Positions 38,639 to 58,800 of a stretch of 64,000 bases of DNA are shown here, in pieces; within the stretch, counting starts at the first letter, position 1; each line of letters begins with the position of its first letter. The stretch comes from Nitrosopumilus sp. Its GTDB lineage: Archaea; Thermoproteota; Nitrososphaeria; Nitrososphaerales; Nitrosopumilaceae. The position numbers and the translations under genes were made by a program. The stretch covers positions 640,001-704,000 of the forward strand of contig OZ242041.1 of the NCBI GenBank assembly GCA_965205215.1, in the 5' to 3' direction. Under the pieces are notes generated by a model. The model did no database searches. It was not told the origin of the DNA and worked only from the letters and a program-made list of their open reading frames with translations.

Positions 38639-40470
38639 TGCATATCTAGCGCCGGCTTTACGTTCTCCCACGGATTGAAGGCCTTGTAGTAATAGGAGTA
38701 GTTCACGTCATCGCACCAGATTGTCGAGGTCACGTTTATTGTACGCGACAGGTATTCTGACGGCGAGGTGAATACGCATACACCTCCCGAATGCAGGCCT
38801 ATCAGGTTGTGCGATCCGCTGGCATTGTGGTGAATTACCGGGGCGCCGCTGTCTCCCCTTATGCTATCATAGCTGGAAATTCCCATGTTGGTAAGCGTGT
38901 TCGTGCCAGACCCGAGAGTTGCATTCTTGTACCGTAGCCATCCGTCATCGTTGGTAAATGCGCCATAGATGTTCACCTTTGACCACCGAGGGACGTCCGA
39001 AAGATTCCCATATGTGACGTTCATCACGGTTCCGTTCAACATCTGGACCTTGTTGCCTATGATTATGTTCGGATCCTCGATCGGAACGAAAGCCACATCC
39101 GCATCAACAGTGTTATGCCGTGCATCAGGATTTCGGTTTAAAATCACATAATCGTTGCCCACGGTGTGGTTGTGAAACACCTACGTGGCAGGATCAAGTG
39201 CGACATTGTGTCCTGCAGTTATGATGCCTTTGACTCCGGTGCTGGCGTTTGTCGCTCCTATCGCCATCGTGCCTGTATACCCGTATGGTCCGCTTGAATC
39301 GGCCAAGAATATCGTATAGTTGTTTCCACCATAGAACTCCAGCACTCTGGATATCATCACGTCGTCTATCCCGACATCCTCAGATGACGAACTCATGTGC
39401 GCCACGAACCTCGCTTGGAACGAGTCCGATATGTACGGGGTGATGTCGAGCCTTTCAAAGTGCCACAGGCCGTCGTCGTCCCCAGAGTTTCCGGCCCATT
39501 CTGCCAGCCGGGCCCATGTTCCGTTGCCCGTAGTCACCTCGACCCGGAGGTATTCCCCGCTGTCAAGGGTCTGGTCGACGTACCTGTAGAACGAGAGCGC
39601 CGCGCGGCCTTCAGAGGAGAGGTCGACGGAGGCCCTGGTGGCGAGCACGCACTGCGTGGTGCACCTGTCGGCCGACGCAACGCTGTTGGTATCGTTGTAC
39701 CCCGGAGGATGGACATTATCGTCAAAACTGCCAGCCTCCCACTTGTATCTGCCGGAGTTGGTCCAGTTGCCCAGCCTGTCGGTCTCAAAGTCATCCAAAA
39801 AGACGGTGGTCGACAACGTGGCGTGGGCCGGTGCGGGGGCCGGCGCCGGTGCGGGCTCCGGTTCGGGCGCCGCGCCCGGGGGCTGCCACTCGTTGTCGGA
39901 GTCCAGCACGTAGTGGTTCTGGGTTGCCAGGTTGAAGAACAGCGCCTTGCACAGGCTGCTTGCGGTGGGCGAGTCGCACCTCGAGTCATACAGCGATATC
40001 CACGGGTCTGTCTGGGACTTGGGCGACGGCGACGTGTGGCCGTCCGGGACGAATACCCCGTACTTTACGTCCATCCTTTCCCCGCCGATCTCCAGAAGGG
40101 GCGCAATGTCGGCCTCGCTATAGTCAAATCCCAATGTCGGCAGTATCGAGTCGAGTATGACGTGCAGCTTTTCCTCATCCTCGTCAACGAACGTCATGGT
40201 GAACACGATGTCGCCTGCCCGGGAATAGTCGTGTTCTGAGTGATCGATCATGATGTCGGTAATGGTGCTGTGGGCCTCGTACAGCTCGCTTACGGTGCCG
40301 ACTGGCCCGACCGCGTCGTCCTCGGGGTTCAGGCCCCCGGACACTGCAGGCCCGCCCGCCCCGCCCCCGCCGGCCGTGCCCGCGTGTGAAGTGGAATCGG
40401 CGACCGTCGCGCGCAGCGCCATCGCAGCCACGGACACGAGAAGGACGGCCGGGGCGGCAAACAGCACCAC
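38635..40470 (-). pseudogene. Secreted trypsin-like (S1) serine protease with MAM-like domain, in-frame TAG at 39181-39183
   Basis: ITAGH (His) in the upstream ORF; DADVAFV (Asp) and RGDSGAP (Ser) in the downstream ORF; same frame, a single TAG between them. Confidence 0.8.
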
Positions 40471-40638
40471 TCTTGGACATCCCGGACTGCTGTCTTGTGA
40501 CGCGTATTAAACGTTGACAAGAACGGGTTGTATGGACTCACCTATGTTAACCCTCGTGCGTAGTTGGCGTGTCTGTGTCGTTGCACTTCCATTCCGTGCG
40601 TGATTGGGTGGCCGGCGGTTTATAGCTTACGCTGGGGG

Positions 40639-42023
40639 TAGTTAGTTGCGCAACCCTGCCTAGAATTTCGAGATACGCCACTTTTGTGAGCTGTTTTGTG
40701 CCCCCAAGTAGAATCTTCTTCACACCGCGTCTTATGTGTGCATGACGTGATGCCCCATCAGCGATCAAGAAGATGGGGCTAACACATCAGCAACAGCATG
40801 TGCTCTCGGAGCGCGAATTTAAGCGGATTGCCGCACCGGCCGGTCCCCGTGCCCGCCTGCGGGGGAGGGCGCGCGGTTGACCTGCGGGGACGGCGGGGCG
40901 ATGAAGCGGAAGCGGAGGTCGCGGCCCGGGATGCCGCACGCGCAGAACGACGCCAGGTACGTGGCGACGGGGCGCGCGCTGGCGCTCGTCACAAGCCCGG
41001 ATGCGGGGGCGGAGCTGAGGCGTATGAACAGGGGGAAGAACGGCCGCCCGTACAAGTATCCGGAATCGCTCATAATGACGCTGGCGGGGTTCAGGAGCTA
41101 CTGCAGGCTCTCGTTTCGCGTATGCGAGGGATTTGCAGGGGGGCAGCTGGGCGGGGGGAGCGTGCCGCACTTTACCCAGATATGGAGGAGGATGAACGCG
41201 CTCGACGTCTCGGTCGGGGCCCGCGCCGTGTCGGTGCGCGGCAGGAACGGCGTGCTGAACCTGTCCATAGACGGCACCGGAATGAGCCCCAGCGGGCGCA
41301 GCGAGTACATCCGGTTCAGGCACAGGGTGGAGCACGGGTTCATCAGGTTCGTCATGGTGGTGGATACGGACACTAGGGAGATCCTCTCGTTCAGCATAAC
41401 GGACGAGACCACCGGCGAGGCGCCGCAGTTCAGGGATCTCACGCTCGAGGCCCTGGAGAACGCCGGGGTCGGCGCGGGCGCGGCAGGCCGGGTGGGGCGG
41501 GGGCCGGGGCCGGGGGCCACACCACGCGGCGGAGGGCCCGAGATAGTGATGAGGGCCGACGGCGGGTTCGACTCGCGCCCCATATTCGCATTCTGCGACA
41601 GGCTCGGGATCATACCGTACATCAGGGTGGGCATAAGCTCGGCCACGCGCTCGCGCGGCGTAAACAGGGCCAGGACCCGCGCCGTCCTCGACCAGCTCGG
41701 GGGAGGCATGCGCGATCCCCGGGAATTTGCAGAACTGACCAGGGACGAGAAGGAGGCAAACCGCAAAAAGTGGAAGAAGAGGGTCGGTTACGGCAAAAGA
41801 TGGCTGGTTGAGATTGTGATCTCGTCGTTCAAGAGGCTGTTCGGGGACTCCGTGCGTGCGGTACGCTGGAAGTACATCGCGCGGGAGATGACGCTCAAGG
41901 TGAACCTCTACAACATGATGCTGAGGGTCCAGAGGGAGGCAATGGCAGTGACATAGGGACAGTGCACCTGAACGCAATCATGGGATATGGGCATGCGGGA
42001 TGAGGGAGTTGCGCAACTAACTA
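40639..42023 (+). mobile_element. IS5-family element, copy A
   Basis: 16-bp perfect TIR TAGTTAGTTGCGCAAC; 8-bp TSD GCTGGGGG; 1385 bp. Confidence 0.92.
40901..41956 (+). CDS. IS5-family DDE transposase
   Basis: GRPYKYP, SIDGTG, ADGGFD and WKKRVGYGKRWLVEIVISSFKRLFG motifs. Confidence 0.92.
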   Translation: MKRKRRSRPGMPHAQNDARYVATGRALALVTSPDAGAELRRMNRGKNGRPYKYPESLIMTLAGFRSYCRLSFRVCEGFAGGQLGGGSVPHFTQIWRRMNALDVSVGARAVSVRGRNGVLNLSIDGTGMSPSGRSEYIRFRHRVEHGFIRFVMVVDTDTREILSFSITDETTGEAPQFRDLTLEALENAGVGAGAAGRVGRGPGPGATPRGGGPEIVMRADGGFDSRPIFAFCDRLGIIPYIRVGISSATRSRGVNRARTRAVLDQLGGGMRDPREFAELTRDEKEANRKKWKKRVGYGKRWLVEIVISSFKRLFGDSVRAVRWKYIAREMTLKVNLYNMMLRVQREAMAVT

Positions 42024-42063
42024 GCTGGGGGTGGCAGCTGCCAAGACCGGGCATCCCGTAGGA

Positions 42064-43179
42064 TTACTGCCGCTTCCGGCCTGCCTTCTTGATCTTGTTC
42101 AGCTTGCGCTGGTACATTGCCTCGTTGCGTGACTTGTACGGTGTCTGGGTGCTCAGCATATGCCACATTATTGTGACCATCTTGTGCGCCACTGCCACTA
42201 TGCCGAGCGCATGCTTGTCCGCGTGCCGCCGCTTGACGGCCTCGTATACGAGTGCCATCTTCGGGTCGTGCATCACGGCCACCTGCGCGGCCTCGCACAT
42301 GGCCCAGTTTACCAAGCGGTTGGTGTTCTGCTTTTTGATGCGGTTCATCCGCGTCGAGTCGCCGGACTCGCGTACCATCGGGCAGAATCCCGCCATGGAG
42401 ACCAGCTTTTTCGGGCCCTTGAACCGCGTTATGCCGTCTATCTCCACTGCCATCAGCAGCGCGACGAACGGCCCGACGCCGGGCATGCTCATCAGCAGCC
42501 TGGCATCTTTGTTCTGCTCTGTCTCTGCAGTGAGGTGCCTGTCAGTATCCGACAGTGACTCTGTAAGGTACTGCATCTGCCTGACGTGCTTTTGCAGCAC
42601 GAACGTCTCGTTTGCGGTTCCGAGCTCGGTCGCCTCCAGCTGCCTGATGCCCTTGAGCGAGTACAGGTTTTTCGCCCCGATGCTTACGTTGTAGGCGTCA
42701 AGGATGCCGCGGATCCTGTTTATCACCTTGGTCCGGTCCTGGGTCAGCCTGACGTGGTGCCGTATCAGGGTCCTGATGCCGCGGACGTGCTTGGTCGGCA
42801 CGTGGCACGCGTCTATCATGCCGGACCGGAGGAGCACTGCAAGCTTGTGCGCATCCTCCCTGTCCGTCTTTTTTGCGCTCTTGGTGATCATCTTCAGCTT
42901 GTACGGGCTGGCCAGGAAGATGCGGACTCCAGCGTCCTCAAACGCCTCGTACGTGGTTCTCCACATGTTGGCGGTGGATTCGCAGACTGCACTGCATTCA
43001 CCCTTTTCCGCGCCGTACTTGCGCGCCATCTCCCGTGCGGCCTCCCTTGCGTCCCGTATCATGTTGGGGTACTGTCCCCTCTCGGCGACCTCCCCCATGG
43101 GATCCAGGACGCAGTAGTCACACTTTTTCTTACTGATGTCGATTCCTATGCTTGTGGTTGCTGTCATGTGTGTGTCCAT
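42064..43179 (-). CDS. IS110-family DEDD recombinase
   Basis: GIDISK, CEST and KTDREDA (DEDD); MPGVG HhH; ESG catalytic Ser. Confidence 0.95.
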   Translation of the reverse strand: MDTHMTATTSIGIDISKKKCDYCVLDPMGEVAERGQYPNMIRDAREAAREMARKYGAEKGECSAVCESTANMWRTTYEAFEDAGVRIFLASPYKLKMITKSAKKTDREDAHKLAVLLRSGMIDACHVPTKHVRGIRTLIRHHVRLTQDRTKVINRIRGILDAYNVSIGAKNLYSLKGIRQLEATELGTANETFVLQKHVRQMQYLTESLSDTDRHLTAETEQNKDARLLMSMPGVGPFVALLMAVEIDGITRFKGPKKLVSMAGFCPMVRESGDSTRMNRIKKQNTNRLVNWAMCEAAQVAVMHDPKMALVYEAVKRRHADKHALGIVAVAHKMVTIMWHMLSTQTPYKSRNEAMYQRKLNKIKKAGRKRQ

Positions 43180-43193
43180 TTTTTGTTCTCACC

Positions 43194-43383
43194 TCCTTTC
43201 GGATGTCTGGTTTTGACGGAACGGAAGCTGCAGTCACCTATCGGGGCGCGCAGCCCAGTTATACAGCAGCTCGGATTGCCCCATTCAGGTCGAAGAGTGC
43301 GCGGTCTGATTGTATTCCGTGTCCCATGAGTACAGAGGGGTCGCTCCATCACGCCCGTCACGACTAGAAGGGTTATCATCCAA
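43194..43383 (-). ncRNA. Candidate bridge RNA, copy A
   Basis: Same sequence as 45036-45225. Confidence 0.6.
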
Positions 43384-43428
43384 TCAGGTCGCCACATCTC
43401 ACGATTCGAGCGTATGCGAAGAACCGTC

Positions 43429-44963
43429 TCAGCATGCGGCGGCAGAAGGCGCCGCCGCTGCGGCCCGCACCGGCCGCTCGGCGCGTTCCGGGCAGTCGGG
43501 CGGCTTGAATATGCGCCAGTCGGGATCCTCGATCATGCGCTCCACCGCCATGCGCGGGAACATGCCCATCTTCTGGCACGTGCGCGCGACGGACACCAGC
43601 ACGGAGAACACGTGGCGTCCCTCGGGTTCTGACAGCTGGTGGCGCACGTTGCGGTGCAGCACTACGGTATCGCGTATCTCCAGCTCGGCGGCGTTGTTGT
43701 GGGGCGGCATGCCCGGATACCTCAGGAACGTGAACAGGTGCGGGGCGGCGCCCTCCAGCGTCTCGCGGAACCCGTGCCCTTTTTTGTAGCCCGACGCTAT
43801 GCGCAGCGCGGCCTTTTCGAGGTTCAGGCACTCGGTACTGTCAGCCGACTTGCGGTCCTTGATCCTCCCGTACAGGGAGAGCAGCCTGCGGTAGCACGAC
43901 AGGTCGTCCCCGCCGTTTCTTACGGCGTATTTCTCGGCCTCGCGCAGTATGTGGGCCCAGCAGCGCTGCCGGACCGGCAGCATGCCGTATACCGCATACC
44001 CGTCGGTGACGGCCGGCATGCCGAGCAGGCCGCCAAAGTGCAGCTCCAGCACGGCCGCGGCCCTGCTCGGGGCCGCCACGATATACGTGGCGTCCCCCGC
44101 CGTCGCCAGCCACACGTACCCGCGTTTGCCGTTCATCCTGACGACCGACTCGTCGAACTGCACGAACGCGGCGCGCGAGATACGCTCCAGGATGCCGCTG
44201 TACGCGGATCTGAGCAGGCCTCCCAGCGCCCTGCGCGCGTTCCAGACGGCGTTTGCCGACACCGAAAAGCCGTAGAGCGCCCGGAAATAGTACGATATGG
44301 TCGCGTCAGTCGACCTCTTGGCGTAGTATTCCAGTATGAACCCCAGGGCCCCCGGGCCGAACGACGTGCCGGGCAGCAGCCCGGGGGCCGGGGCGGTGCT
44401 GACCGCGCCGCACCTCCTGCAGAACCCGCGCTCCAGCACGTACGCGACCGTCTCGACGCGCCTGCTGCTTTCGTCCGGAAAGTCGTTTACGATTCTTGTG
44501 ACGGGGGCCGCGTACGCGAGGTGGCCGCGCCCGCAGTTCCGGCACCGGTACAGGCGCAGTCTCATCCTCCTAGAGGGCCTGTTGCCGTGGGACGCGCCCG
44601 CGTGCCCCTCCGGGGGCCCCTGCGCCTGCCCGCCGAACGCCCCTCCGGTTCAGGTCCGTCTTTCGCGCCGCCGTCCCCTCCGCGCCCCTCCTCTTCTGCA
44701 AGCCTCTTCCGGAACGCGTCGCGCTCCGCATTGTACATGGAACCCGTGGAGGACGGCGCGTTCGGATTCTCGTATTTGGCCAGCCTCCTGTCCTGTTCTT
44801 CAATGGTCTCCATAAGCAGGTCTATCTGCTCCTCAAGGCCTGCCCTTATCCTGTCACGCTCGGCCTCCACACGGGCGACCGCATCCTGCAGCCTCTTGAT
44901 CTCCGCCATCATCTTGGCCATCTCCCGGCGCAGCAGCGCCGTCTCGGAATCGCCCATGGACAA
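43429..44963 (-). pseudogene. IS66 transposase split by a frameshift at a C5 run (44612-44616)
   Basis: Coiled coil + NPNAPSS in ORF1; CxxC, VQFDES, VTDGY, QRCWAH and NNAAELEIR in ORF2; one extra C would restore GPPEGHAG... Confidence 0.85.
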
Positions 44964-45035
44964 TTCGCAGAATATATGATCTATAAGCTTGTCGGCCTAC
45001 CAAAACGACCAACAGAGTCACAGGCACGGACCTGA

Positions 45036-45225
45036 TTGGATGATAACCCTTCTAGTCGTGACGGGCGTGATGGAGCGACCCCTCTGTACTCATGGGACAC
45101 GGAATACAATCAGACCGCGCACTCTTCGACCTGAATGGGGCAATCCGAGCTGCTGTATAACTGGGCTGCGCGCCCCGATAGGTGACTGCAGCTTCCGTTC
45201 CGTCAAAACCAGACATCCGAAAGGA
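45036..45225 (+). ncRNA. Candidate bridge RNA, copy B
   Basis: Contains TGTACTCA, ATACAATCA, CGACCTGA and ATAGGTGA, matching the target and donor half-sites; exact RNA ends unknown. Confidence 0.65.
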
Positions 45226-45239
45226 GGTGAGAACAAAAA

Positions 45240-46355
45240 ATGGACACACACATGACAGCAACCACAAGCATAGGAATCGACATCAGTAAGAAAAAGTGTG
45301 ACTACTGCGTCCTGGATCCCATGGGGGAGGTCGCCGAGAGGGGACAGTACCCCAACATGATACGGGACGCAAGGGAGGCCGCACGGGAGATGGCGCGCAA
45401 GTACGGCGCGGAAAAGGGTGAATGCAGTGCAGTCTGCGAATCCACCGCCAACATGTGGAGAACCACGTACGAGGCGTTTGAGGACGCTGGAGTCCGCATC
45501 TTCCTGGCCAGCCCGTACAAGCTGAAGATGATCACCAAGAGCGCAAAAAAGACGGACAGGGAGGATGCGCACAAGCTTGCAGTGCTCCTCCGGTCCGGCA
45601 TGATAGACGCGTGCCACGTGCCGACCAAGCACGTCCGCGGCATCAGGACCCTGATACGGCACCACGTCAGGCTGACCCAGGACCGGACCAAGGTGATAAA
45701 CAGGATCCGCGGCATCCTTGACGCCTACAACGTAAGCATCGGGGCGAAAAACCTGTACTCGCTCAAGGGCATCAGGCAGCTGGAGGCGACCGAGCTCGGA
45801 ACCGCAAACGAGACGTTCGTGCTGCAAAAGCACGTCAGGCAGATGCAGTACCTTACAGAGTCACTGTCGGATACTGACAGGCACCTCACTGCAGAGACAG
45901 AGCAGAACAAAGATGCCAGGCTGCTGATGAGCATGCCCGGCGTCGGGCCGTTCGTCGCGCTGCTGATGGCAGTGGAGATAGACGGCATAACGCGGTTCAA
46001 GGGCCCGAAAAAGCTGGTCTCCATGGCGGGATTCTGCCCGATGGTACGCGAGTCCGGCGACTCGACGCGGATGAACCGCATCAAAAAGCAGAACACCAAC
46101 CGCTTGGTAAACTGGGCCATGTGCGAGGCCGCGCAGGTGGCCGTGATGCACGACCCGAAGATGGCACTCGTATACGAGGCCGTCAAGCGGCGGCACGCGG
46201 ACAAGCATGCGCTCGGCATAGTGGCAGTGGCGCACAAGATGGTCACAATAATGTGGCATATGCTGAGCACCCAGACACCGTACAAGTCACGCAACGAGGC
46301 AATGTACCAGCGCAAGCTGAACAAGATCAAGAAGGCAGGCCGGAAGCGGCAGTAA
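45240..46355 (+). CDS. IS110-family DEDD recombinase
   Basis: Protein identical to 42064-43179; SD GGAGGTGA upstream. Confidence 0.95.
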   Translation: MDTHMTATTSIGIDISKKKCDYCVLDPMGEVAERGQYPNMIRDAREAAREMARKYGAEKGECSAVCESTANMWRTTYEAFEDAGVRIFLASPYKLKMITKSAKKTDREDAHKLAVLLRSGMIDACHVPTKHVRGIRTLIRHHVRLTQDRTKVINRIRGILDAYNVSIGAKNLYSLKGIRQLEATELGTANETFVLQKHVRQMQYLTESLSDTDRHLTAETEQNKDARLLMSMPGVGPFVALLMAVEIDGITRFKGPKKLVSMAGFCPMVRESGDSTRMNRIKKQNTNRLVNWAMCEAAQVAVMHDPKMALVYEAVKRRHADKHALGIVAVAHKMVTIMWHMLSTQTPYKSRNEAMYQRKLNKIKKAGRKRQ

Positions 46356-46395
46356 TCCTACGGGATGCCCGGTCTTGGCAGCTGCCACCCCCAGC

Positions 46396-47780
46396 TAGTT
46401 AGTTGCGCAACCCTGCCTAGAATTTCGAGATACGCCACTTTTGTGAGCTGTTTTGTGCCCCCAAGTAGAATCTTCTTCACACCGCGTCTTATGTGTGCAT
46501 GACGTGATGCCCCATCAGCGATCAAGAAGATGGGGCTAACACATCAGCAACAGCATGTGCTCTCGGAGCGCGAATTTAAGCGGATTGCCGCACCGGCCGG
46601 TCCCCGTGCCCGCCTGCGGGGGAGGGCGCGCGGTTGACCTGCGGGGACGGCGGGGCGATGAAGCGGAAGCGGAGGTCGCGGCCCGGGATGCCGCACGCGC
46701 AGAACGACGCCAGGTACGTGGCGACGGGGCGCGCGCTGGCGCTCGTCACAAGCCCGGATGCGGGGGCGGAGCTGAGGCGTATGAACAGGGGGAAGAACGG
46801 CCGCCCGTACAAGTATCCGGAATCGCTCATAATGACGCTGGCGGGGTTCAGGAGCTACTGCAGGCTCTCGTTTCGCGTATGCGAGGGATTTGCAGGGGGG
46901 CAGCTGGGCGGGGGGAGCGTGCCGCACTTTACCCAGATATGGAGGAGGATGAACGCGCTCGACGTCTCGGTCGGGGCCCGCGCCGTGTCGGTGCGCGGCA
47001 GGAACGGCGTGCTGAACCTGTCCATAGACGGCACCGGAATGAGCCCCAGCGGGCGCAGCGAGTACATCCGGTTCAGGCACAGGGTGGAGCACGGGTTCAT
47101 CAGGTTCGTCATGGTGGTGGATACGGACACTAGGGAGATCCTCTCGTTCAGCATAACGGACGAGACCACCGGCGAGGCGCCGCAGTTCAGGGATCTCACG
47201 CTCGAGGCCCTGGAGAACGCCGGGGTCGGCGCGGGCGCGGCAGGCCGGGTGGGGCGGGGGCCGGGGCCGGGGGCCACACCACGCGGCGGAGGGCCCGAGA
47301 TAGTGATGAGGGCCGACGGCGGGTTCGACTCGCGCCCCATATTCGCATTCTGCGACAGGCTCGGGATCATACCGTACATCAGGGTGGGCATAAGCTCGGC
47401 CACGCGCTCGCGCGGCGTAAACAGGGCCAGGACCCGCGCCGTCCTCGACCAGCTCGGGGGAGGCATGCGCGATCCCCGGGAATTTGCAGAACTGACCAGG
47501 GACGAGAAGGAGGCAAACCGCAAAAAGTGGAAGAAGAGGGTCGGTTACGGCAAAAGATGGCTGGTTGAGATTGTGATCTCGTCGTTCAAGAGGCTGTTCG
47601 GGGACTCCGTGCGTGCGGTACGCTGGAAGTACATCGCGCGGGAGATGACGCTCAAGGTGAACCTCTACAACATGATGCTGAGGGTCCAGAGGGAGGCAAT
47701 GGCAGTGACATAGGGACAGTGCACCTGAACGCAATCATGGGATATGGGCATGCGGGATGAGGGAGTTGCGCAACTAACTA
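46396..47780 (+). mobile_element. IS5-family element, copy B
   Basis: Same TIRs as copy A; 8-bp TSD CCCCCAGC (46388-46395, 47781-47788). Confidence 0.92.
46658..47713 (+). CDS. IS5-family DDE transposase
   Basis: Identical to 40901-41956. Confidence 0.92.
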   Translation: MKRKRRSRPGMPHAQNDARYVATGRALALVTSPDAGAELRRMNRGKNGRPYKYPESLIMTLAGFRSYCRLSFRVCEGFAGGQLGGGSVPHFTQIWRRMNALDVSVGARAVSVRGRNGVLNLSIDGTGMSPSGRSEYIRFRHRVEHGFIRFVMVVDTDTREILSFSITDETTGEAPQFRDLTLEALENAGVGAGAAGRVGRGPGPGATPRGGGPEIVMRADGGFDSRPIFAFCDRLGIIPYIRVGISSATRSRGVNRARTRAVLDQLGGGMRDPREFAELTRDEKEANRKKWKKRVGYGKRWLVEIVISSFKRLFGDSVRAVRWKYIAREMTLKVNLYNMMLRVQREAMAVT

Positions 47781-47893
47781 CCCCCAGCGTAAGCTATAAA
47801 CCGCCGGCCACCCAATCACGCACGGAATGGAAGTGCAACGACACAGACACGCCAACTACGCACGAGGGTTAACATAGGTGAGTACATACAACG

Positions 47894-47978
47894 GGTTCCG
47901 TTGCTAATTCGTGACTCCTTTCAAAAAACAATCAGTTTCCATCCTTACCTGCGGAGGTCACAAATTCGCAACGGAACC
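47894..47978. mobile_element. 85-bp MITE
   Basis: GGTTCCGTTGCTAATTCGTGAC vs reverse complement of right end GGTTCCGTTGCGAATTTGTGAC (20/22); related to the ends at 12704, 13843 and 25297. Confidence 0.75.
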
Positions 47979-48025
47979 ACCTATCGCGGGAGCCGTGCAG
48001 GGCCGTGCCCTTGAGTCCCTCCGGC

Positions 48026-50323
48026 CTAGTGACAATAGCACCTGGCCGCGGCTACCTCTAGTACCTCTTTGGTCGTGAGTTCCCCGTCAACATAGTCTTG
48101 CATTGCGACATGCCACTCGCCTTCCTGTATCGCGCCGTCGCCGTTGCTGTCATACCGCTCTACCGGGGTACGCGGGTCGGGCTCGGGCTCGTCGCTTTCG
48201 GCTACCAGGCAGAACTGTTCGGTACATTCGATGACCCAGTCATCGCCGTACGTGGCTCTGTTCTTGTCATCTTTGGGTTTTTCCTGCTGCGCCTCCGCGG
48301 GCTCTGGCGCGACTACCGTGACCGTCCTGTTCTGCTGGACGGCCTGGGTGCCCGAGCTGTCGGCCACCCTGTAGTGCAGCGAGTACTCAGCGGCCACTGA
48401 CGTGTCCACGGTACCCGTGACGGTCACGTTGGCGGTTATGTTGCGGCCCGCGTGGTCGGTGGCCGCGTAGCCGGGCTCCTCCCACGCCGAGCCGAGCTGT
48501 ATGGTCATGTCGGGCGAGCCGGCCAGTGTGATCACCGGGGGCTGCGGCGGGTTCGGCGTGACTGTCTTTTGCTGCTGCTCCTCCTCCGCGGGCTCTGGCG
48601 CGACTACCGTGACCGTCCTGTTCTGCTGGACGGCCTGGGTGCCCGAGCTGTCGGCCACCCTGTAGTGCAGCGAGTACTCAGCGGCCACTGACGTGTCCAC
48701 GGTACCCGTGACGGTCACGTTGGCGGTTATGTTGCGGCCCGCGTGGTCGGTGGCCGCGTAGCCGGGCTCCTCCCACGCCGAGCCGAGCTGTATGGTCATG
48801 TCGGGCGAGCCGGCCAGTGTGATCACCGGGGGCTGCGGCGGGTTCGGCGTGACTGTCTTTTGCTGCTGCTCCTCCTCCGCGGGCTCTGGCGCGACTACCG
48901 TGACCGTCCTGTTCTGCTGGACGGCCTGGGTGCCCGAGCTGTCGGCCACCCTGTAGTGCAGCGAGTACTCAGCGGCCACTGACGTGTCCACGGTACCCGT
49001 GACGGTCACGTTGGCGGTTATGTTGCGGCCCGCGTGGTCGGTGGCCGCGTAGCCGGGCTCCTCCCACGCCGAGCCGAGCTGTATGGTCATGTCGGGCGAG
49101 CCGGCCAGTGTGATCACCGGGGGCTGCGGCGGGTTCGGCGTGACTGTCTTTTGCTGCTGCTCCTCCTCCGCGGGCTCTGGCGCGACTACCGTGACCGTCC
49201 TGTTCTGCTGGACGGCCTGGGTGCCCGAGCTGTCGGCCACCCTGTAGTGCAGCGAGTACTCAGCGGCCACTGACGTGTCCACGGTACCCGTGACGGTCAC
49301 GTTGGCGGTTATGTTGCGGCCCGCGTGGTCGGTGGCCGCGTAGCCGGGCTCCTCCCACGCCGAGCCGAGCTGTATGGTCATGTCGGGCGAGCCGGCCAGT
49401 GTGATCACCGGGGGCTGCGGCGGGTTCGGCGTGACTGTCTTTTGCTGCTGCTCCTCCTCCGCGGGCTCTGGCGCGACTACCGTGACCGTCCTGTTCTGCT
49501 GGACGGCCTGGGTGCCCGAGCTGTCGGCCACCCTGTAGTGCAGCGAGTACTCAGCGGCCACTGACGTGTCCACGGTACCCGTGACGGTCACGTTGGCGGT
49601 TATGTTGCGGCCCGCGTGGTCGGTGGCCGCGTAGCCGGGCTCCTCCCACGCCGAGCCGAGCTGTATGGTCATGTCGGGCGAGCCGGCCAGTGTGATCACC
49701 GGGGGCTGCGGCGGGTTCGGCGTGACTGTCTTTTGCTGCTGCTGCTGCTGCTGCTGCGCCTCCGCGGGCTCTGGCGCGACCACCTTGGGCTGCGGCGACT
49801 CCGCGGGAGGCGCGACGATGCACGCTTGGACGGTATCGGTCTGTGACCAGTCCATATCGGTGGCCTTCCAGTGCGCAGCCCTGCCGGGGCTGTCGGAGAA
49901 GGGAAACCTGTCGGCGCCAAAGACAAGCTCCAGGCCGTGTCGGTTCTGGATGGGCGTCTCGGTTGCAAATATCAGGTAATCCAGATCCATGTCGAGGTAC
50001 AGGTACTCTACGCCATAGTTGGCGCCCTCATAGTTAATGTGGCGGGGGGTGAGCCACTGGATGCAGGCGGCATCGTACCAGTACCAGCAGCCATGCGAGT
50101 TGCCCGCCTCGTACGTCACAAGGGTGGCGTTCCAGACGACGTCAAAGGCGCGGCCGTCGTCGGTGACGGGCACGCTGCAGGCGAAATTGCCGCTTTGAGC
50201 CGTTGGCGGGCCGTCCGAGTCACCGTCCGATTGCGCAAAGGCGTCCTCGACGGCCGTGACATTCGACAGGCCGTACGCCGCGACTGCCAAAAGGACGATC
50301 ATCGCACAGAGCCCGGGCTTCAT
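48026..50323 (-). CDS. Secreted surface protein with five DUF5011-type Ig-like repeats and EF-hand-like CYCH tail
   Basis: Signal peptide ending AFA; PVITLAGSPDMTIQLGSAWEEPGYAATD...VDTS..Y x5; C-terminus DSNGDGAI...AAARCYCH. Confidence 0.88.
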   Translation of the reverse strand: MKPGLCAMIVLLAVAAYGLSNVTAVEDAFAQSDGDSDGPPTAQSGNFACSVPVTDDGRAFDVVWNATLVTYEAGNSHGCWYWYDAACIQWLTPRHINYEGANYGVEYLYLDMDLDYLIFATETPIQNRHGLELVFGADRFPFSDSPGRAAHWKATDMDWSQTDTVQACIVAPPAESPQPKVVAPEPAEAQQQQQQQQKTVTPNPPQPPVITLAGSPDMTIQLGSAWEEPGYAATDHAGRNITANVTVTGTVDTSVAAEYSLHYRVADSSGTQAVQQNRTVTVVAPEPAEEEQQQKTVTPNPPQPPVITLAGSPDMTIQLGSAWEEPGYAATDHAGRNITANVTVTGTVDTSVAAEYSLHYRVADSSGTQAVQQNRTVTVVAPEPAEEEQQQKTVTPNPPQPPVITLAGSPDMTIQLGSAWEEPGYAATDHAGRNITANVTVTGTVDTSVAAEYSLHYRVADSSGTQAVQQNRTVTVVAPEPAEEEQQQKTVTPNPPQPPVITLAGSPDMTIQLGSAWEEPGYAATDHAGRNITANVTVTGTVDTSVAAEYSLHYRVADSSGTQAVQQNRTVTVVAPEPAEEEQQQKTVTPNPPQPPVITLAGSPDMTIQLGSAWEEPGYAATDHAGRNITANVTVTGTVDTSVAAEYSLHYRVADSSGTQAVQQNRTVTVVAPEPAEAQQEKPKDDKNRATYGDDWVIECTEQFCLVAESDEPEPDPRTPVERYDSNGDGAIQEGEWHVAMQDYVDGELTTKEVLEVAAARCYCH
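48296..49750 (-). repeat. Five tandem 291-bp coding repeats
   Basis: Identical shadow ORFs recur every 291 bp (48452, 48743, 49034, 49325, 49616). Confidence 0.95.
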
Positions 50324-50662
50324 CGGTGTTCGACGGGGGGGGGGGGGTATAATAACCTTAACCAATAATTCGAGAAAATATGTACAAACATTAACTATTG
50401 GACAGATCAAATTGGCATATGTTTGGCAGCCTTTCTGCCGGGTACCGGGTGGGTTCTGGCCCCGAATGGGGATTTTTTGGATTACAAGGCGGCCGGATCT
50501 GCGGGTGTTGGCCGGTCCGGGGCCCTGCCGGTGCCCGGGCGCCCGACACCCGCGAGGCGCCCGCCGCGGGCGGCCTGCCGTGCGCCCCGGTTTTCACGGT
50601 ACATGGCAACCCCCCCACCGTCCTTCGGGAACGGTGCCGGATTCGGCATGATCCTGTCCGCT

Positions 50663-51064
50663 TCACGCGTCCGGCGGGCGAAGGAAAATCTGCTCGCGGA
50701 GCACCTGCCAGCGCCCGTCTTCGAAACGCCACTCGATGTTGCACAGGAGCTGCATCTCCTCGCCGCTCATTCCGCTGTGCCTTCGGGTCAGCACGCAGAC
50801 CGCGGTGTCGCCCAGGACATGGAAGTCGTGCCAGTCCGCCCACGTATTGAGCCGCGTCCTGCCCTCTTCGGCCTGCTTGCGGAAATGGGCGATGAATCCC
50901 CCCTTGTCATAGGTGGTTACGGTGCCGTCGGGCATCACCAGGGTCGTATGAAAGTCCCTGTGGTAGATGGCCTCCAGCGCGCCGACGTCGAAGTTGGTCG
51001 CGCGATCGATAAGGCGGTCCATTGCCGCGCGGATCGCCCCTGCCGTGTGGGTGGCGTCTGTCAT
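50663..51064 (-). CDS. NTF2/SnoaL-like (DUF4440-like) protein
   Basis: DVGALEAIYHRDF...DG....DK..F...GDTAV...WRFEDGRWQVLREQ. Confidence 0.82.
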   Translation of the reverse strand: MTDATHTAGAIRAAMDRLIDRATNFDVGALEAIYHRDFHTTLVMPDGTVTTYDKGGFIAHFRKQAEEGRTRLNTWADWHDFHVLGDTAVCVLTRRHSGMSGEEMQLLCNIEWRFEDGRWQVLREQIFLRPPDA

Positions 51065-51586
51065 GGCGTCAGTTCCCGCGGATCGCGGGCGCCGTATGAA
51101 AGTATCGACGCCCGGGCCGGCCGCGGCAGCTCCCCGCCGCGAGGATCCGTGCCCTTTTGGCGGGATCCCACGCCATCCCGGCTGCCTCGCCTGTCTCGCT
51201 CTTCGGCCCGGCGACGGTGCCCCTGAAGCATCCCCGGCATGCCCGCTCCGGGGGGCGGGGCGGGGGCGGGGCGGGGGCGGGGCGGGGGCGTCTGCAGCCC
51301 CCTGGCCGCATCGTCCGCCATCCGGCAGGTCTTCTGGGCCTCCGGCAACAGGTAGTCCGTCTCGGGGGCCGCTACGTCGGTGTATGTCCTGCGGAGCCAC
51401 TCAAACTCGGCCGGCCGGCCGGGATACGGCCGCGGGGGCCCGCTTCCGGACAGCATGGCGGTGCCCGCCCTCATCTCAGCCATGGCCGGGTCGACGGATG
51501 GGCGCCGAGTTCGTGCTTAATGCCTCTCTGAGACGGGGGCCGTTATTGGTTAGGTTGGGCACAAGGCCAAACTTTCTAGATCGCCA

Positions 51587-52426
51587 CTTGTGTAACCCCT
51601 CAGACATGATTGGCGCGACTGTCGCCGCACTTCCATTCCGTGCGCGGTTGGGTGGCCGGCGGTTTGTGGATTACACGGGGGGGGGGGGTGGCAGCTGCCG
51701 GGATCGGGCATCCCGCAGGATTGCCGCCGCCCCCGGCCCGCCCCCTTGATCTTGTTCAGCTTGCGCCGGTACATTGCCCCGTTGCGTGGCCCGTACGGTG
51801 TCCCGGTGCCGCGGACGCGCCCGGTCGGCACGCGGCACGCGTCTATCATGCCGGACCGGAGGGGCACCGCAAGCCTGCGCGCGTCCTCCCCGTCCGTCTT
51901 TTTTGCGCTCCCTGTGATCATCTTCAGCCTGTACGGGCTGGCCGGGGGATGCGCGCCCCCGCGTCCCCAAACGCCTCGTGCGTGGCACGCCACATGCCGG
52001 CGGCGGACACACAGACTGCCCCGCATCCTCCATTTTTCGCGCCGTACCTGCGCGCCATCCCCCGCGCCGCCCGTCCCGCGCCCCGCATCGCGTTGTGGTA
52101 CCGCCCACTCTCGACGGCCACCCCCCCCGGGATCCGGGGCGCAACAGTCGCGCTTTTTCTTGCTGATGTCGATTCCTGTGCTTGCGGTTGCTGCCATGCG
52201 CGCGTGTCCATTTTTTGTCCTCGCCTCCCCTAGAATGCCTGGTTTTAACTGAACGGAAGCTGCGGCCACCTATCGGGGGCGCGCAGCCCTGCCATGCAGC
52301 AGCCCGGATTGCCCCATTCGGGTCCGGGAGTGCGCGGCCTGGCCGTATTCCGTGCCCCGTGAGTCCGGAGGGGTCGCTCCACCACGCCCGTCACGACGGG
52401 GGGGGGGGGAGGTTGTCATCCAATCA
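51587..52426 (-). pseudogene. Decayed IS110 copy C (frameshifts, ~630-bp internal deletion, no IS5)
   Basis: Aligns to 40545-40638, 42032-42150 and 42780-43386. Confidence 0.88.
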
Positions 52427-52514
52427 GGTCCACGCCCGTCAAATCTCAAAATACCGACAAGCGGGCACGAGTTTTCGAGGGGCCTGAGCGCATACCGTGC
52501 GCGGTATGGTCTCA

Positions 52515-52731
52515 CGTCGGCACGTCTCGCGAATCGAGCGCATGCTAAGAACCGCCCCGGCATGTCGCGGCGGCAGCGGCGGCAGCAGAAGGCGCCGCCG
52601 CTGCAGCCCGCACCGGCCGCTCGGCGCCCCCCGGGCAGTCGTCGGGCGGCTTGAACATGTGCCAGTTCGGATCCTCGATCATGCGCTCCGCCGCCATGCG
52701 CGGGAGCATGCCCATCTTCTGGCACGTGCGC
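52515..52731 (-). pseudogene. Decayed 3' fragment of the IS66 transposase
   Basis: RTCQKMGMLPRMAAERMIEDPNWHMFKPPD aligns to 43390-43585. Confidence 0.85.
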
Positions 52732-52877
52732 AATCTAATTTATAAACATGTGAAATGGTTATTTGCTATGTTGCAGCGGAATGCAGTTTTTAGCCCTGCC
52801 TCTCCATGCGCGGCCGGCCATCCCGGCCCGCGTGCCATGCGCAGTGAGGCCTCTCGGGGGGGGGGGGGTGACTCCAT

Positions 52878-55800
52878 GTGACGGGCCGCGCCCATCATAT
52901 ACGGATTGCGGCGGCGGTGGTGGCCGCCGCGATGGCCGTTGCCGCCTCGGGGATCGCCGCCAACGACGCCTTTGCCGAGCCGGAGATAGATCTTGTCCCG
53001 CGGGACAGCGTGGCCGACAGCGACTTTACGTATCTTCAGGGGGCAAACCAGGTGGAGGTCTTTGTCCAAGGGAACAAGAGATACGCGGTGGTGGCCTCCA
53101 CCGACGAAAGCATACACCTGCTTGACATCACCGACCCTGCCAACATCAACGAGCTGCGCCACCCGAACCGGCAGCAGCAGAGCGGCAACAACAACTTCAA
53201 CAACGCCATCGGCGGCGAAACGGCCACCACGTACGTGGCCAACGACGGCAACCTCTACATCGTGCTGTCCTGGAGCACCAGTGACGCCATCCAGACGTTC
53301 CACATCCACGAGAACGGGCGGCTGGACGAGCTGGCCCATGTGGTGGACAGCTCCAAGATGGACCTCGCCACGGACCTGTTCGTATATTCGGTGGGGGGCA
53401 AGCATTACGCCGCCGTCGCGGCGAGCCTCTCGAACTCCCTCCGTATAGTGGACGTGACCGACCCGCGCAGCCTCGGCACCGCAGCCCTCAGGGGCCAGAT
53501 CACCGACAATGACGACATACTGCTTCAGGGCCCGTCGGGCGTCGCGCACTACCAGAAGGATGACCGGCACTACGCGGTGGTGGTGACAGATTCAGAGGAC
53601 AGCGTTCAGATTATCGACGTTACCAACCCGAACAGCCCCACCGCCGCCGGCAGCCTGAGGGACAACGGCGATCTCGAACTGAACGGGGCCGAGGACGTTG
53701 CCATATACGCGGTGGGGGACCGCACCTACGCCGTGGTGACCGGCAACACCGACGACGGCATCCAGATTGTGGACATCACCAACCCGAACAGCATCTTCCC
53801 CGCCGGCCAGCTGGAGGACGACCACAGCCTACTGCTGGACAACCCCCGGGGCGTGGCCGTCCATGCAATAGGTGACCGCCACTACGCGGTGGTGGCCTCC
53901 AGCGGCGACCACGGCATCCTGGTGGTGGACATCACCAACCCGCACAACCCCGTACCCAAGGCGAGCCTCGGCGACGGCCAAAGAGGCGCCGACGAGCTTT
54001 ATACCGCAACCGGCGTGGACACCTTCTCGATAGGAAACCGCCACTATGCAATAGTCGCGGCCAACAACGACAACGGCGTGCAGATGGTGGAGATGACCGA
54101 GGTGACCGCCGACGCCCGAGAAAGCCAGGCGGTGAGGGCCGGCCAAGCCGTCGTCCTGGACGGTTCGGCATCCGCCGTCTCCTCCGGCATGCCGCCCACG
54201 TACCAGTGGACCCAGACGGCCGGACCCACTGTCACCCTGCAGGACACCAACGCGGCGCGGCTCAACTTTACGGCCCCGAGCGGCCCCTCGACGCTAGTCT
54301 TTCAGCTGGCCGTAACGCACGGCGGCACCACCTCCACCGATGTCGTAACGGTGTCCGTCGCCCCGGACGCTGCCACACCGGTGGACAACACGGCGGTGGG
54401 CCTCACGCCGCGGGACAGCGTGGCCGACAGCGACTTTACGTATCTTCAGGGGGCAAACCAGGTGGAGGTCTTTGTCCAAGGGAACAAGAGATACGCGGTG
54501 GTGGCCTCCACCGACGAAAGCATACACCTGCTTGACATCACCGACCCTGCCAACATCAACGAGCTGCGCCACCCGAACCGGCAGCAGCAGAGCGGCAACA
54601 ACAACTTCAACAACGCCATCGGCGGCGAAACGGCCACCACGTACGTGGCCAACGACGGCAACCTCTACATCGTGCTGTCCTGGAGCACCAGTGACGCCAT
54701 CCAGACGTTCCACATCCACGAGAACGGGCGGCTGGACGAGCTGGCCCATGTGGTGGACAGCTCCAAGATGGACCTCGCCACGGACCTGTTCGTATATTCG
54801 GTGGGGGGCAAGCATTACGCCGCCGTCGCGGCGAGCCTCTCGAACTCCCTCCGTATAGTGGACGTGACCGACCCGCGCAGCCTCGGCACCGCAGCCCTCA
54901 GGGGCCAGATCACCGACAATGACGACATACTGCTTCAGGGCCCGTCGGGCGTCGCGCACTACCAGAAGGATGACCGGCACTACGCGGTGGTGGTGACAGA
55001 TTCAGAGGACAGCGTTCAGATTATCGACGTTACCAACCCGAACAGCCCCACCGCCGCCGGCAGCCTGAGGGACAACGGCGATCTCGAACTGAACGGGGCC
55101 GAGGACGTTGCCATATACGCGGTGGGGGACCGCACCTACGCCGTGGTGACCGGCAACACCGACGACGGCATCCAGATTGTGGACATCACCGACCCGCACG
55201 ACATCTTCCCCGCCGGCCAGCTGGAGGACACCCTCGCATCCGACATCCGGCTGGACAACCCCCGGGGCGTGGCCGTCCATGCAATAGGTGACCGCCACTA
55301 CGCGGTGGTGGCCTCCAGCGGCGACCACGGCATCCTGGTGGTGGACATCACCAACCCGCACAACCCCGTACCCAAGGCGAGCCTCGGCGACGGCCAAAGA
55401 GGCGCCGACGAGCTTTATACCGCGACCGGCGTGGACACCTTCTCGATAGGAAACCGCCACTATGCAATAGTCGCGGCCAACAACGACAACGGCGTGCAGA
55501 TGGTGGAGATGACCGAGGTGACCGCCGACGCCCGAGAAAGCCAGGCGGTGAGGGCCGGCCAAGCCGTCGTCCTGGACGGTTCGGCATCCGCCGTCTCCTC
55601 CGGCATGCCGCCCACGTACCAGTGGACCCAGACGGCCGGATCCACTGTCACCCTGCAGGACGCCAACACGGCGCGGCTCAACTTTACGGCCCCGAGCGGC
55701 CCCTCGACGCTAGTCTTTCAGCTGGCCGTAACGCACGGCGGCGCCACCTCCACCGATGTCGTAACGGTGTCCGTCGCCCCGGACGCTGCCACGTCGACGG

Positions 55801-58800
55801 GCGAGACGGCGGTGGGCCTCACGCCGCGGGACAGCGTGGCCGACAGCGACTTTACGTATCTTCAGGGGGCAAACCAGGTGGAGGTCTTTGTCCAAGGGAA
55901 CAAGAGATACGCGGTGGTGGCCTCCACCGACGAAAGCATACACCTGCTTGACATCACCGACCCTGCCAACATCAACGAGCTGCGCCACCCGAACCGGCAG
56001 CAGCAGAGCGGCAACAACAACTTCAACAACGCCATCGGCGGCGAAACGGCCACCACATACGTGGCCAACGACGGCAACCTCTACATCGTGCTGTCCTGGA
56101 GCACCAGTGACGCCATCCAGACGTTCCACATCCACGAGAACGGGCGGCTGGACGAGCTGGCCCATGTGGTGGACAGCTCCAAGATGGACCTCGCCACGGA
56201 CCTGTTCGTATATTCGGTGGGGGGCAAGCATTACGCCGCCGTCGCGGCGAGCCTCTCGAACTCCCTCCGTATAGTGGACGTGACCGACCCGCGCAGCCTC
56301 GGCACCGCAGCCCTCAGGGGCCAGATCACCGACAATGACGACATACTGCTTCAGGGCCCGTCGGGCGTCGCGCACTACCAGAAGGATGACCGGCACTACG
56401 CGGTGGTGGTGACAGATTCAGAGGACAGCGTTCAGATTATCGACGTTACCAACCCGAACAGCCCCTTCCCCGCCGGCAGCCTGAGGGACAACGGCGATCT
56501 CGAACTGAACGGGGCCGAGGACGTTGCCATATACGCGGTGGGGGACCGCACCTACGCCGTGGTGACCGGCAACACCGACGACGGCATCCAGATTGTGGAC
56601 ATCACCGACCCGCACGACATCTTCCCCGCCGGCCAGCTGGAGGACACCCTCGCATCCGACATCCGGCTGGACAACCCCCGGGGCGTGGCCGTCCATGCAA
56701 TAGGTGACCGCCACTACGCGGTGGTGGCCTCCAGCGGCGACCACGGCATCCTGGTGGTGGACATCACCAACCCGCACAACCCCGTACCCAAGGCGAGCCT
56801 CGGCGACGGCCAAAGAGGCGCCGACGAGCTTTATACCGCGACCGGCGTGGACACCTTCTCGATAGGAAACCGCCACTATGCAATAGTCGCGGCCAACAAC
56901 GACAACGGCGTGCAGATGGTGGAGATGACCGAGGTGACCGCCGACGCCGGAGGCGACAGGGCGGTGAGGGCCGGCCAAGCCGTCATCCTGGACGGTTCGA
57001 CATCCACCGCCTCCTCCGGCGCGACCCCCGCATACCAGTGGACCCAGACGGCCGGATCCACTGTCACCCTGCAGGACGCCAACACGGCGCGGCTCTTCTT
57101 TACGGCCCCGAACAGCCCCCTGACGCTAGTCTTTCAGCTGGCCGTAACGCACGGCGGCGCCACCTCCACCGATGTCGTAACGGTGTCCGTCGCCCCGGAC
57201 GCTGCCACGTCGACGGGCGAGACGGCGGTGGGCCTCACGCCGCGGGACAGCGTGGCCGACAGCGACTTTACGTATCTTCAGGGGGCAAACCAGGTGGAGG
57301 TCTTTGTCCAAGGGAACAAGAGATACGCGGTGGTGGCCTCCACCGACGAAAGCATACACCTGCTTGACATCACCGACCCTGCCAACATCAACGAGCTGCG
57401 CCACCCGAACCGGCAGCAGCAGAGCGGCAACAACAACTTCAACAACGCCATCGGCGGCGAAACGGCCACCACATACGTGGCCAACGACGGCAACCTCTAC
57501 ATCGTGCTGTCCTGGAGCACCAGTGACGCCATCCAGACGTTCCACATCCACGAGAACGGGCGGCTGGACGAGCTGGCCAGTGTGGTGGACAGCTCCAAGA
57601 TGGACCTCGCCACGGACCTGTTCGTATATTCGGTGGGGGGCAAGCATTACGCCGCCGTCGCGGCGAGCCTCTCGAACTCCCTCCGTATAGTGGACGTGAC
57701 CGACCCGCGCAGCCTCGGCACCGCAGCCCTCAGGGGCCAGATCACCGACAATGACGACATACTGCTTCAGGGCCCGTCGGGCGTCGCGCACTACCAGAAG
57801 GATGACCGGCACTACGCGGTGGTGGTGACAGATTCAGAGGACAGCGTTCAGATTATCGACGTTACCAACCCGAACAGCCCCACCGCCGCCGGCAGCCTGA
57901 GGGACAACGGCGATCTCGAACTGAACGGGGCCGAGGACGTTGCCATATACGCGGTGGGGGACCGCACCTACGCCGTGGTGACCGGCAACACCGACGACGG
58001 CATCCAGATTGTGGACATCACCAACCCGAACAGCATCTTCCCCGCCGGCCAGCTGGAGGACGACCACAGCCTACTGCTGGACAACCCCCGGGGCGTGGCC
58101 GTCCATGCAATAGGTGACCGCCACTACGCGGTGGTGGCCTCCAGCGGCGACCACGGCATCCTGGTGGTGGACATCACCAACCCGCACAACCCCGTACCCA
58201 AGGCGAGCCTCGGCGACGGCCAAAGAGGCGCCGACGAGCTTTATACCGCAACCGGCGTGGACACCTTCTCGATAGGAAACCGCCACTATGCAATAGTCGC
58301 GGCCAACAACGACAACGGCGTGCAGATGGTGGAGATGACCACCGTGACCGCCGACGCCCGAGAAAGCCATACGGTGAGGATCAACCAAGCCGTCGTCCTG
58401 GACGGTTCGGCATCCGCCGTCTCCTCCGGCGCGACCCCCGCGTACCAATGGAACCAGACGGCCGGACCCACTGTCACCCTGCAGGACACCAACGCGGCGC
58501 GGCTCTTCTTTACGGCCCCGAGCGGCCCCTCGACGCTAGTCTTTCAGCTGGCCGTAACGCACGGCGGCGCCACCTCCACCGATATCGTAACGGTGTCCGT
58601 CGCCCCGGACGCTGCCACACCGGTGGACAACACGGCGGTGGAACTTACGCCGCGGGACAGCGTGGCCGACAGCGACTTTACGTATCTTCAGGGGGCAAAC
58701 CAGGTGGAGGTCTTTGTCCAAGGGAACAAGAGATACGCGGTGGTGGCCTCCACCGACGAAAGCATACACCTGCTTGACATCACCGACCCTGCCAACATCA

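Follow-up and report, generated by a model that had tools for sequence, protein, structure and literature searches.

An IS110-family element of Nitrosopumilus sp. very probably encodes, in its left non-coding end (45035-45239), a two-loop bridge RNA of about 136 nt. We analyzed a 64,000-nt stretch of the genome (the window), to which all positions refer unless stated otherwise. The element has defined boundaries, inserts at a specific site and in a specific orientation, and carries in this region a conserved structure in which four strands covary with their DNA partners. A sequence-only reading of the window had proposed a guide RNA in the 5' non-coding end of an IS110-family element; domain matches, conserved structure and strand covariation all point the same way.

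The window contains a nest of insertion sequences, in a genome that consists of a single 2.1-Mb contig with 60% G+C. Both terminal inverted repeats of one IS66-family element are interrupted by an IS110-family element, 11 bp inward of the tip. The two IS110 copies, copy B (45035-47878, forward strand) and copy A (40541-43384, reverse strand; within the opposite terminal repeat of IS66), are 100% identical to each other. Copy B spans 2844 bp, including 1393 bp of an IS5-family insertion with its target duplication; the native element of 1451 bp has non-coding ends of 204 nt upstream and 138 nt downstream of the recombinase gene. The body of the host IS66-family element (43385-45034, reverse strand) has its tips at 40530-40540 and 47879-47889, and these are flanked by an 8-bp target duplication, AACGGGTT (40522-40529 and 47890-47897). 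The IS66 transposase fragments match PF03050 and NF033517, and upstream of the transposase frame lies a 133-aa frame (44562-44963, reverse strand) for which Pfam and NCBIfam returned no match.

The ends of copy B were set by empty IS66-type sites and by the termini conserved among relatives. Five further IS66 copies in the genome, at 90% identity, have intact and unoccupied ends that read GTATAGAC-TCA-GGTCG and GTATGGAC-TCA-CGTCC, and short IS66-derived elements bear GTATGCAC-TCA-GGTCC. Two of the IS66 copies stand head to tail with 8 bp between them and unoccupied ends, outside the window (genome positions 870560-873869). A TG is found at both IS110 junctions (45033-45034 and 47879-47880), a single TG (TCA in the orientation of the sequence-only reading) at the empty sites, and there is no target duplication. 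The target reconstructed in that reading thus exists, as uninterrupted IS66-type ends GTAT(A/G)GAC-TCA-(G/C)GTC elsewhere in the genome. Its three-base core stands in part: a shared core is real, and it comprises 2 nt, TG or AG at both ends, in relatives, the third base, A, not being assignable here.

Inside the junctions, the left subterminal inverted repeat ATGATAACCC (45040-45049) is preceded by 5 nt of the element and the 2-nt core (TG+ATTGG, 7 nt in all), and its right partner GGGTTAACAT (47866-47875), which matches it at 9 of 10 positions, is followed by 3 nt (AGG). These repeats are 10 bp long in this element and reach about 24 bp with mismatches in a relative, L011. Junctions, 10-bp repeats and the 204-nt 5' non-coding end are all as first described, and the combination of a long upstream non-coding region with IS1111-like subterminal repeats is likewise observed. 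A decayed third IS110 copy (51587-52424, reverse strand), 82% identical, sits within the end of a short IS66-derived element, and insertion position and orientation are identical in three of three copies, bearing out the targeting of IS66-type terminal inverted repeats. The recombinase frame of this third copy is broken; runs of 10-12 G occur at 51678-51689, 52399-52410 and 52858-52869. The flank extends to 52731 and includes an IS66 fragment (52579-52731) that is 91% identical to 43436-43585.

The insertion in the right non-coding end of copy B is an IS5-family element of 1385 bp (46396-47780, forward strand; PF01609 and NF033579), flanked by an 8-bp duplication, CCCCCAGC (46388-46395 and 47781-47788). 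It is absent from the decayed third copy and from the X3 and X4 contigs of a related organism (two contigs per run), in which 46386 is joined straight to 47780. The genome holds just two copies of it (40639-42023 and 46396-47780), both at the same IS110 nucleotide and with the same 8-bp duplication, in opposite orientations relative to IS110. Copying of a composite unit fails to explain this opposite orientation, leaving two alternatives: the element inserted twice, independently, at a strongly preferred site, or it was inverted in place. Since both intact IS110 copies carry the insertion in their right end, the present-day activity of the element is only putative.

Elsewhere in the window, a large open frame contains a tandem repeat of five 291-bp units at 99% identity (48284-49747), and further tandem units of about 1416 bp, 93-99% identical, lie within large open frames at 52998-59975. 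These frames probably encode repeat-rich surface proteins.

The recombinase gene (45240-46355, forward strand) encodes 371 aa with both domains of the family, PF01548 (DEDD_Tnp_IS110, E 4.3e-26) and PF02371 (Transposase_20, E 6.6e-21), and matches NF033542, 'IS110 family RNA-guided transposase', at 227.8 bits against a cutoff of 140. Its N- and C-terminal parts can be aligned with the recombinases of ISCro4 and IS621. The nearest relatives come from Nitrosopumilaceae and Nitrososphaerales assemblies, 11 of the related proteins (P0001-P0011) having 67-90% identity, and among plasmids the IS110-family genes of haloarchaea match best, at 32-34% identity, with one of them annotated ISHvo9. A metagenome scan returned 15 loci, of which the sole close one (L051, 69%) ends 126 nt upstream of the gene.

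We compared the upstream regions of 32 non-identical relatives and found a conserved scaffold interrupted by four variable stretches. The comparative fold is a three-way junction with two internal loops, one per arm. In the present element the predicted RNA core covers 136 nt (45069-45204, forward strand), in which helix P1 (45069-45077 with 45196-45204) encloses two arms, one binding the target and one the donor. The helices P2 (45079-45082 with 45137-45140) and P3 (45148-45153 with 45188-45193) lie within P1, and each arm is capped by an apical hairpin, at 45163-45175 in the donor arm. Standard pairs occupy 88.4% of 845 cells, compared with 34.9-48.8% after shifting partners by 1-3 columns; both sides change at 15 of 27 pairs, and the covariation score was attained by none of 500 shuffles, although the sequences scored are those from which we had drawn the structure by eye, so that the test favors it. 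Folding of the single sequence did no better than shuffles (z = 0.43; 131 of 200 shuffles at least as stable). From the first alignment RNAalifold predicted just the helices of the donor arm plus an alternative helix of 4 bp, missing P1 and P2, and a scan of 40000-53000 against Rfam 15 gave no match at E up to 1.

A covariance model (R1), which the sequence-only reading had suggested building, was made from 30 sequences. It matches 27 of the 151 genomes sampled from the family, a count that takes in the present genome and one unpublished genome, with up to 22 copies per genome. One relative, L032, has, ahead of its recombinase gene, a partly duplicated donor arm whose parts are separated by a (CTA)n/(CTG)n run; this locus was excluded from alignments A1 and A2, and L039 and L042 were excluded from A2. 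Apical hairpins of the donor or target arm are expanded by 20-30 nt of unrelated sequence in two sets of loci (L096-L098, L088 and L106-L108; L099-L101, L091, L110 and L104), which indicates that the hairpin tips tolerate insertions.

Four strands face the two internal loops. The target loop has a 5' strand (45083-45093) with guide TGTACTCA at 45085-45092, the reverse complement of the core and right flank of copy B, and a 3' strand (45125-45136) with guide CGACCTGA at 45127-45134, in the sense of left flank and core, which is identical to copy A and agrees with copy B at 7 of 8 positions. The donor loop has a 5' strand, UGUAUAACU (45154-45162), homologous by position to the family's left-end guide, and a 3' strand (45176-45187) with guide ATAGGTGA at 45178-45185, which has the sense of the right end and core and is identical to them. 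In a further segment, ATACAATCA (45104-45112), 8 of 9 positions agree with the reverse complement of core and left end. The sequence-only reading had taken TGTACTCA, CGACCTGA, ATAGGTGA and ATACAATCA as four guides, and all four matches lie at the coordinates it gave.

Each of the exact matches is just 8 nt long, which leaves room for the view that they arose by chance or are remnants of a target that entered the element. In 20,000 first-order Markov simulations of the 192-nt body, an exact 8-mer appeared 403 times for the left flank, 176 times for the right flank and 35 times for the right end, and a left-end 9-mer with at most one mismatch 329 times; at least two of the three exact 8-mers were found together in 5 simulations. 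The same alignment columns also match the flanks in relatives that have unrelated targets. Taken with the simulations, this makes chance or relics extremely unlikely as the origin of the matches, and we retain the guide reading.

When about 60 thaumarchaeal relatives are compared, each of the four loop strands varies in step with either a flank or an end of the element itself, as the guide-target check proposed in the sequence-only reading would have it. Element ends were located through conserved termini, independently of the target strands, with the right end placed according to a score for the subterminal repeat, and 21 distinct guides entered each target-strand test. The 3' target strand agreed with left flank and core at 143 of 168 positions (shuffled 74.0, sd 6.5) and the 5' target strand with the reverse complement of core and right flank at 105 of 168 (shuffled 72.8, sd 5.4); the 5' donor strand agreed with the reverse complement of the start of the left end at 145 of 160 (shuffled 106.4, sd 4.3). 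In each case none of 20,000 permutations scored as high, figures that overstate independence because the relatives are kin. Wrong-partner controls behaved differently: with the 3' target strand set against the right flank, 2933 of 5000 shuffles were at least as high, and with the 5' target strand set against the left flank, 317 of 5000.

The donor test drew on 32 distinct guide/end pairs from a wider set that included model matches from other genomes. In this second set, left ends were placed by the 3' target strand and right ends by the 3' donor strand, and only the 5' strands were tested. We dropped 'frag', 'mainA' and loci without a left end, as well as second-set loci with a left-end offset outside 28-40 nt or a flank score below 6, and the 65 remaining rows collapsed to the 32 pairs. 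The 3' donor strand, GATAG(G/A)(T/A)G, tracks the right end CATAG(G/A) and core (T/A)G, its two variable positions agreeing in 26 of 30 rows (the others are L009, L025, L026 and L030). Some loci fit less well. Right flanks misfit the 5' target strand in L009, L012, L017, L019, L022 and L030, with 2-4 of 9 Watson-Crick pairs in the register used, and in the element studied here the 5' donor strand and the left end agree at 3 of 5 positions, the family minimum, tied with L010.

Relatives and paralogues show these strands changing together with their targets. L011 and L013, found in one genome, are 98.1% identical, and their 3' target strands, TTTTTTGTG and TTGGTCGTG, disagree at 4 of 9 positions; the corresponding left flanks, AGATTTGTG and TACGTCGTG, show differences that match those of the strands. 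We read this pair as a clear case of natural reprogramming, in line with the potential for reprogramming that had been suggested for the element. In the present genome, an IS110-family paralogue with 42% amino acid identity (L006, genome positions 1053014-1054315, outside the window) has a microsatellite on either side, (GCT)n(GTT)n and (GTGTGGTT)n, and its target strands, TTGTTGTTG and CCACACA, match those repeats. The two occupied IS66 ends score 15 of 16 against the two 8-nt target guides of the present element, and all 17 unoccupied look-alikes score 13-14 of 16.

These observations also bear on whether the region acts through RNA at all. Protein-DNA contacts could instead read the subterminal repeats and the target, with the 5' region serving as an mRNA leader or as a protein-binding DNA site, and both the conservation of the subterminal inverted repeats and the Shine-Dalgarno-like GGAGGTGA that follows the region would suit such an arrangement. 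However, neither a DNA site nor a leader predicts four variable strands that change with flanks and ends while the helices keep pairing through compensatory changes. The G-U pairs in P1 and P3 suit the sense strand only, and the protein family has been experimentally shown to use such RNAs, according to the available text of two reports (PMC11208160; PMC11187229). We therefore regard a mechanism without guide RNA as very unlikely and the bridge RNA as the better account of the region.

The sequence-only reading had gone further and placed the left-end donor guide between the two target guides, at ATACAATCA, in the order LTG-LDG-RTG-RDG. Three of its four guides, TGTACTCA, CGACCTGA and ATAGGTGA, are covarying loop strands; the fourth does not follow the left end in the three closest relatives. 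ATACAATCA lies in the target-arm apical hairpin (45094-45124), which has 31 nt here and 13-15 nt in most Nitrosopumilaceae-type relatives, within a 12-nt loop (45103-45114) that is unpaired when the fold is constrained to the consensus helices. Besides its 8-of-9 match, the poor fit of the canonical 5' donor strand speaks for a guide at this place, as some compensation is conceivable. The hairpin expansion, however, is found in just four related RNAs: the present element, L009, L137 and, in an unrelated form, L010. The loop is AAUACAAUCAGA in the present element (core and left end TG-ATTGGAT), AACACAAUCAGA (ACACAATCA) in L009 (TG-ATTAGAT) and ACCGGAAUCAGA (CCGGAATCA) in L137 (TG-AATGGAT), and the last two match their own left ends at 6 and 5 of 9 positions only. 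L010 (TG-AATGGAT) has no such loop and an unrelated hairpin in its place. The present element and L137 share left-end bases 4-7 and yet differ wholly in the pairing part of the loop, and the conserved AAUCAGA of the loop stays constant although the left end changes. Other lineages enlarge the target- or donor-arm hairpin with unrelated sequence, and in two lineages with an expanded target arm (the L099 group and L104) we saw no left-end complement by eye.

Across the family, the left end is read by the 5' strand of the second loop, here UGUAUAACU, so that the order becomes LTG-RTG-LDG-RDG, a target loop followed by a donor loop. Because this strand fits the left end less well here than anywhere else in the family, an interleaved bridge RNA with ATACAATCA as donor guide keeps a small probability. 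The same low probability attaches to the history it would imply, in which the canonical left-end guide of this lineage decayed and the target-arm hairpin gained a 9-nt loop complementary to core and left end; the donor would then be read partly from inside the target arm, by a three-site interleaved bridge RNA. We also considered ATACAATCA as a handshake guide and rejected this reading, since the handshake bases of IS621 are not in a hairpin loop; in the available text of PMC11208158 they are the 2 nt immediately 3' of the 3' strands.

In the sequential two-loop reading, which we prefer, P1 would close the two arms, each with one internal loop. The 5' strand of the donor loop (45154-45162) would read the start of the left end and its 3' strand (45178-45185) the right end and core. 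Loaded with this RNA, the DEDD/Ser recombinase (45240-46355) would synapse the circle junction (...CATAGG-TG-ATTGG...) with the GGTC-side/TG/AGT(A/C)CATAC of IS66-type terminal repeats, and strand exchange would then take place at the TG core. We infer that the bridge RNA is made and bound by the recombinase and that the circle is formed. The X1 and X2 contigs stop at the repeat borders, and no go-back joints at the element ends are listed for them, which makes them uninformative on circles.

A conserved AGCTATAAA in the right non-coding end (47792-47800, forward strand; 40619-40627 in copy A) suggests how such a circle could be transcribed. It is preceded by TAGCG and lies 87 nt from the end in this element. 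All 16 Nitrosopumilaceae-type relatives whose right non-coding end exceeds 125 nt have it too, at a distance of 87-90 nt from the right terminus; we saw no similar box in the left end. The IS5-family insertion lies 3 nt upstream of the TAGCG..AGCTATAAA motif. As the box faces outward, in a circle it would direct reading over the junction, and the RNA and recombinase gene would lie downstream. It is thus a candidate TATA box of an outward-facing archaeal promoter, which would drive transcription across the circle junction. The whole promoter may be kept inside the right end, and guide RNA and recombinase may be made solely from the excised circle.

The closest parallel is the bridge RNA of IS621 and the IS110 group, as set out in the available text of PMC11208160 and PMC11208158. 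In both systems, a DEDD/Ser recombinase gene is preceded by the RNA, which is encoded in the left non-coding end and forms a target loop followed by a donor loop, both internal. The 5' and 3' strands of each loop run toward a 2-nt core and are separated by an apical hairpin, and insertion occurs without target duplication. The loop order is therefore that of IS621 and does not make the distinct topology that the sequence-only reading had claimed; the real difference is a mirrored strand polarity. Here the 5' strands read right flank and left end, whereas in L111, a plasmid-borne, annotated IS621 copy from E. coli, they read left flank and right end. L111 has the left-flank-sense ATCGGGCCT and the right-end-sense ACAGTATC on the 5' sides of its loops, and strands of these senses occupy the 3' sides in the present element. 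The polarity of IS621 given in the accessible part of Durrant et al. 2024 (PMC11208160) is the same as our reading of L111.

Further differences from IS621, taken from the same partial texts, concern structure, ends, host and promoter. IS621 has consecutive stem-loops, whereas here an enclosing helix, P1, produces a three-way junction; its subterminal repeats, which in elements of its type are absent or very short, measure 2-3 bp rather than 10 bp, and its core is CT rather than TG (AG in some relatives). The host is archaeal, and in place of a bacterial-type junction promoter there is the conserved TATA-like box 87-90 nt inside the right end.

In ends and polarity the element resembles the IS1111 group. 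IS1111 elements have, in the available text of PMC11187229, subterminal inverted repeats of 7-17 bp, extensions of 7 bp on the left and 3 bp on the right, and a downstream non-coding region. The seekRNA elements ISEc11, ISKpn4 and ISPa11 share with ours the 7-nt left extension (including the core) and the 3-nt right extension. IS1111-family RNAs place the top-strand complement first, and IS110-type RNAs show the reverse (Siddiquee et al. 2024, PMC11187229, as far as its available text goes); in our element, too, the top-strand complement is 5' of the bottom-strand match. In contrast to the IS1111 group, whose guide RNA is downstream of the recombinase gene in that account, the RNA here is upstream, and the donor strands lie in a simple internal loop.

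Other elements in the same partial text share single features, by description. Three are listed there as exceptions, and that text gives no RNA structure or guide assignment for them: ISMtsp17, an IS1111 relative, has an upstream non-coding region as here, and ISHvo10 and ISAcp5 have long non-coding regions on both sides, like the present element. ISEc21, of the IS110 family, also combines an upstream non-coding region with a conserved target in another IS family, although this target lies inside an IS3-family transposase gene rather than a terminal repeat and the bottom-strand match comes first. The habit of inserting into the terminal repeats of another mobile element is shared with IS4321 and IS5075, which target those of another transposon according to the title of a reference in PMC11208160. 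A 2026 preprint (bioRxiv 10.64898/2026.10.21.760802) reports, in its available part, 86 bridge-RNA models over bacterial and archaeal data. A literature search turned up no paper on the guides of an archaeal member, and the surveys (PMC11208160, PMC11187229 and the preprint) may already hold the family or the polarity.

The union of IS1111-type ends and polarity with an upstream RNA of two internal loops, in archaea, is, as judged from sequence, a new combination. To our knowledge, bridge and seek RNAs have so far been experimentally characterized in bacterial elements. By its ends, polarity and RNA location, the family is an apparent intermediate form between the IS110 and IS1111 groups, which bears on how the RNA gene moved between the ends of such elements. 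It would offer a compact system, with a 371-aa recombinase, a 136-nt RNA and clear natural reprogramming. The TATA-like box is a candidate for the archaeal answer to the junction-promoter problem. The family is spread through ammonia-oxidizing archaea, a group without genetic tools, and in this genome the two occupied IS66 ends are the best guide matches. By homing into IS66-type ends, a putative guide-directed IS110 element would show how one mobile element can hold another in check.
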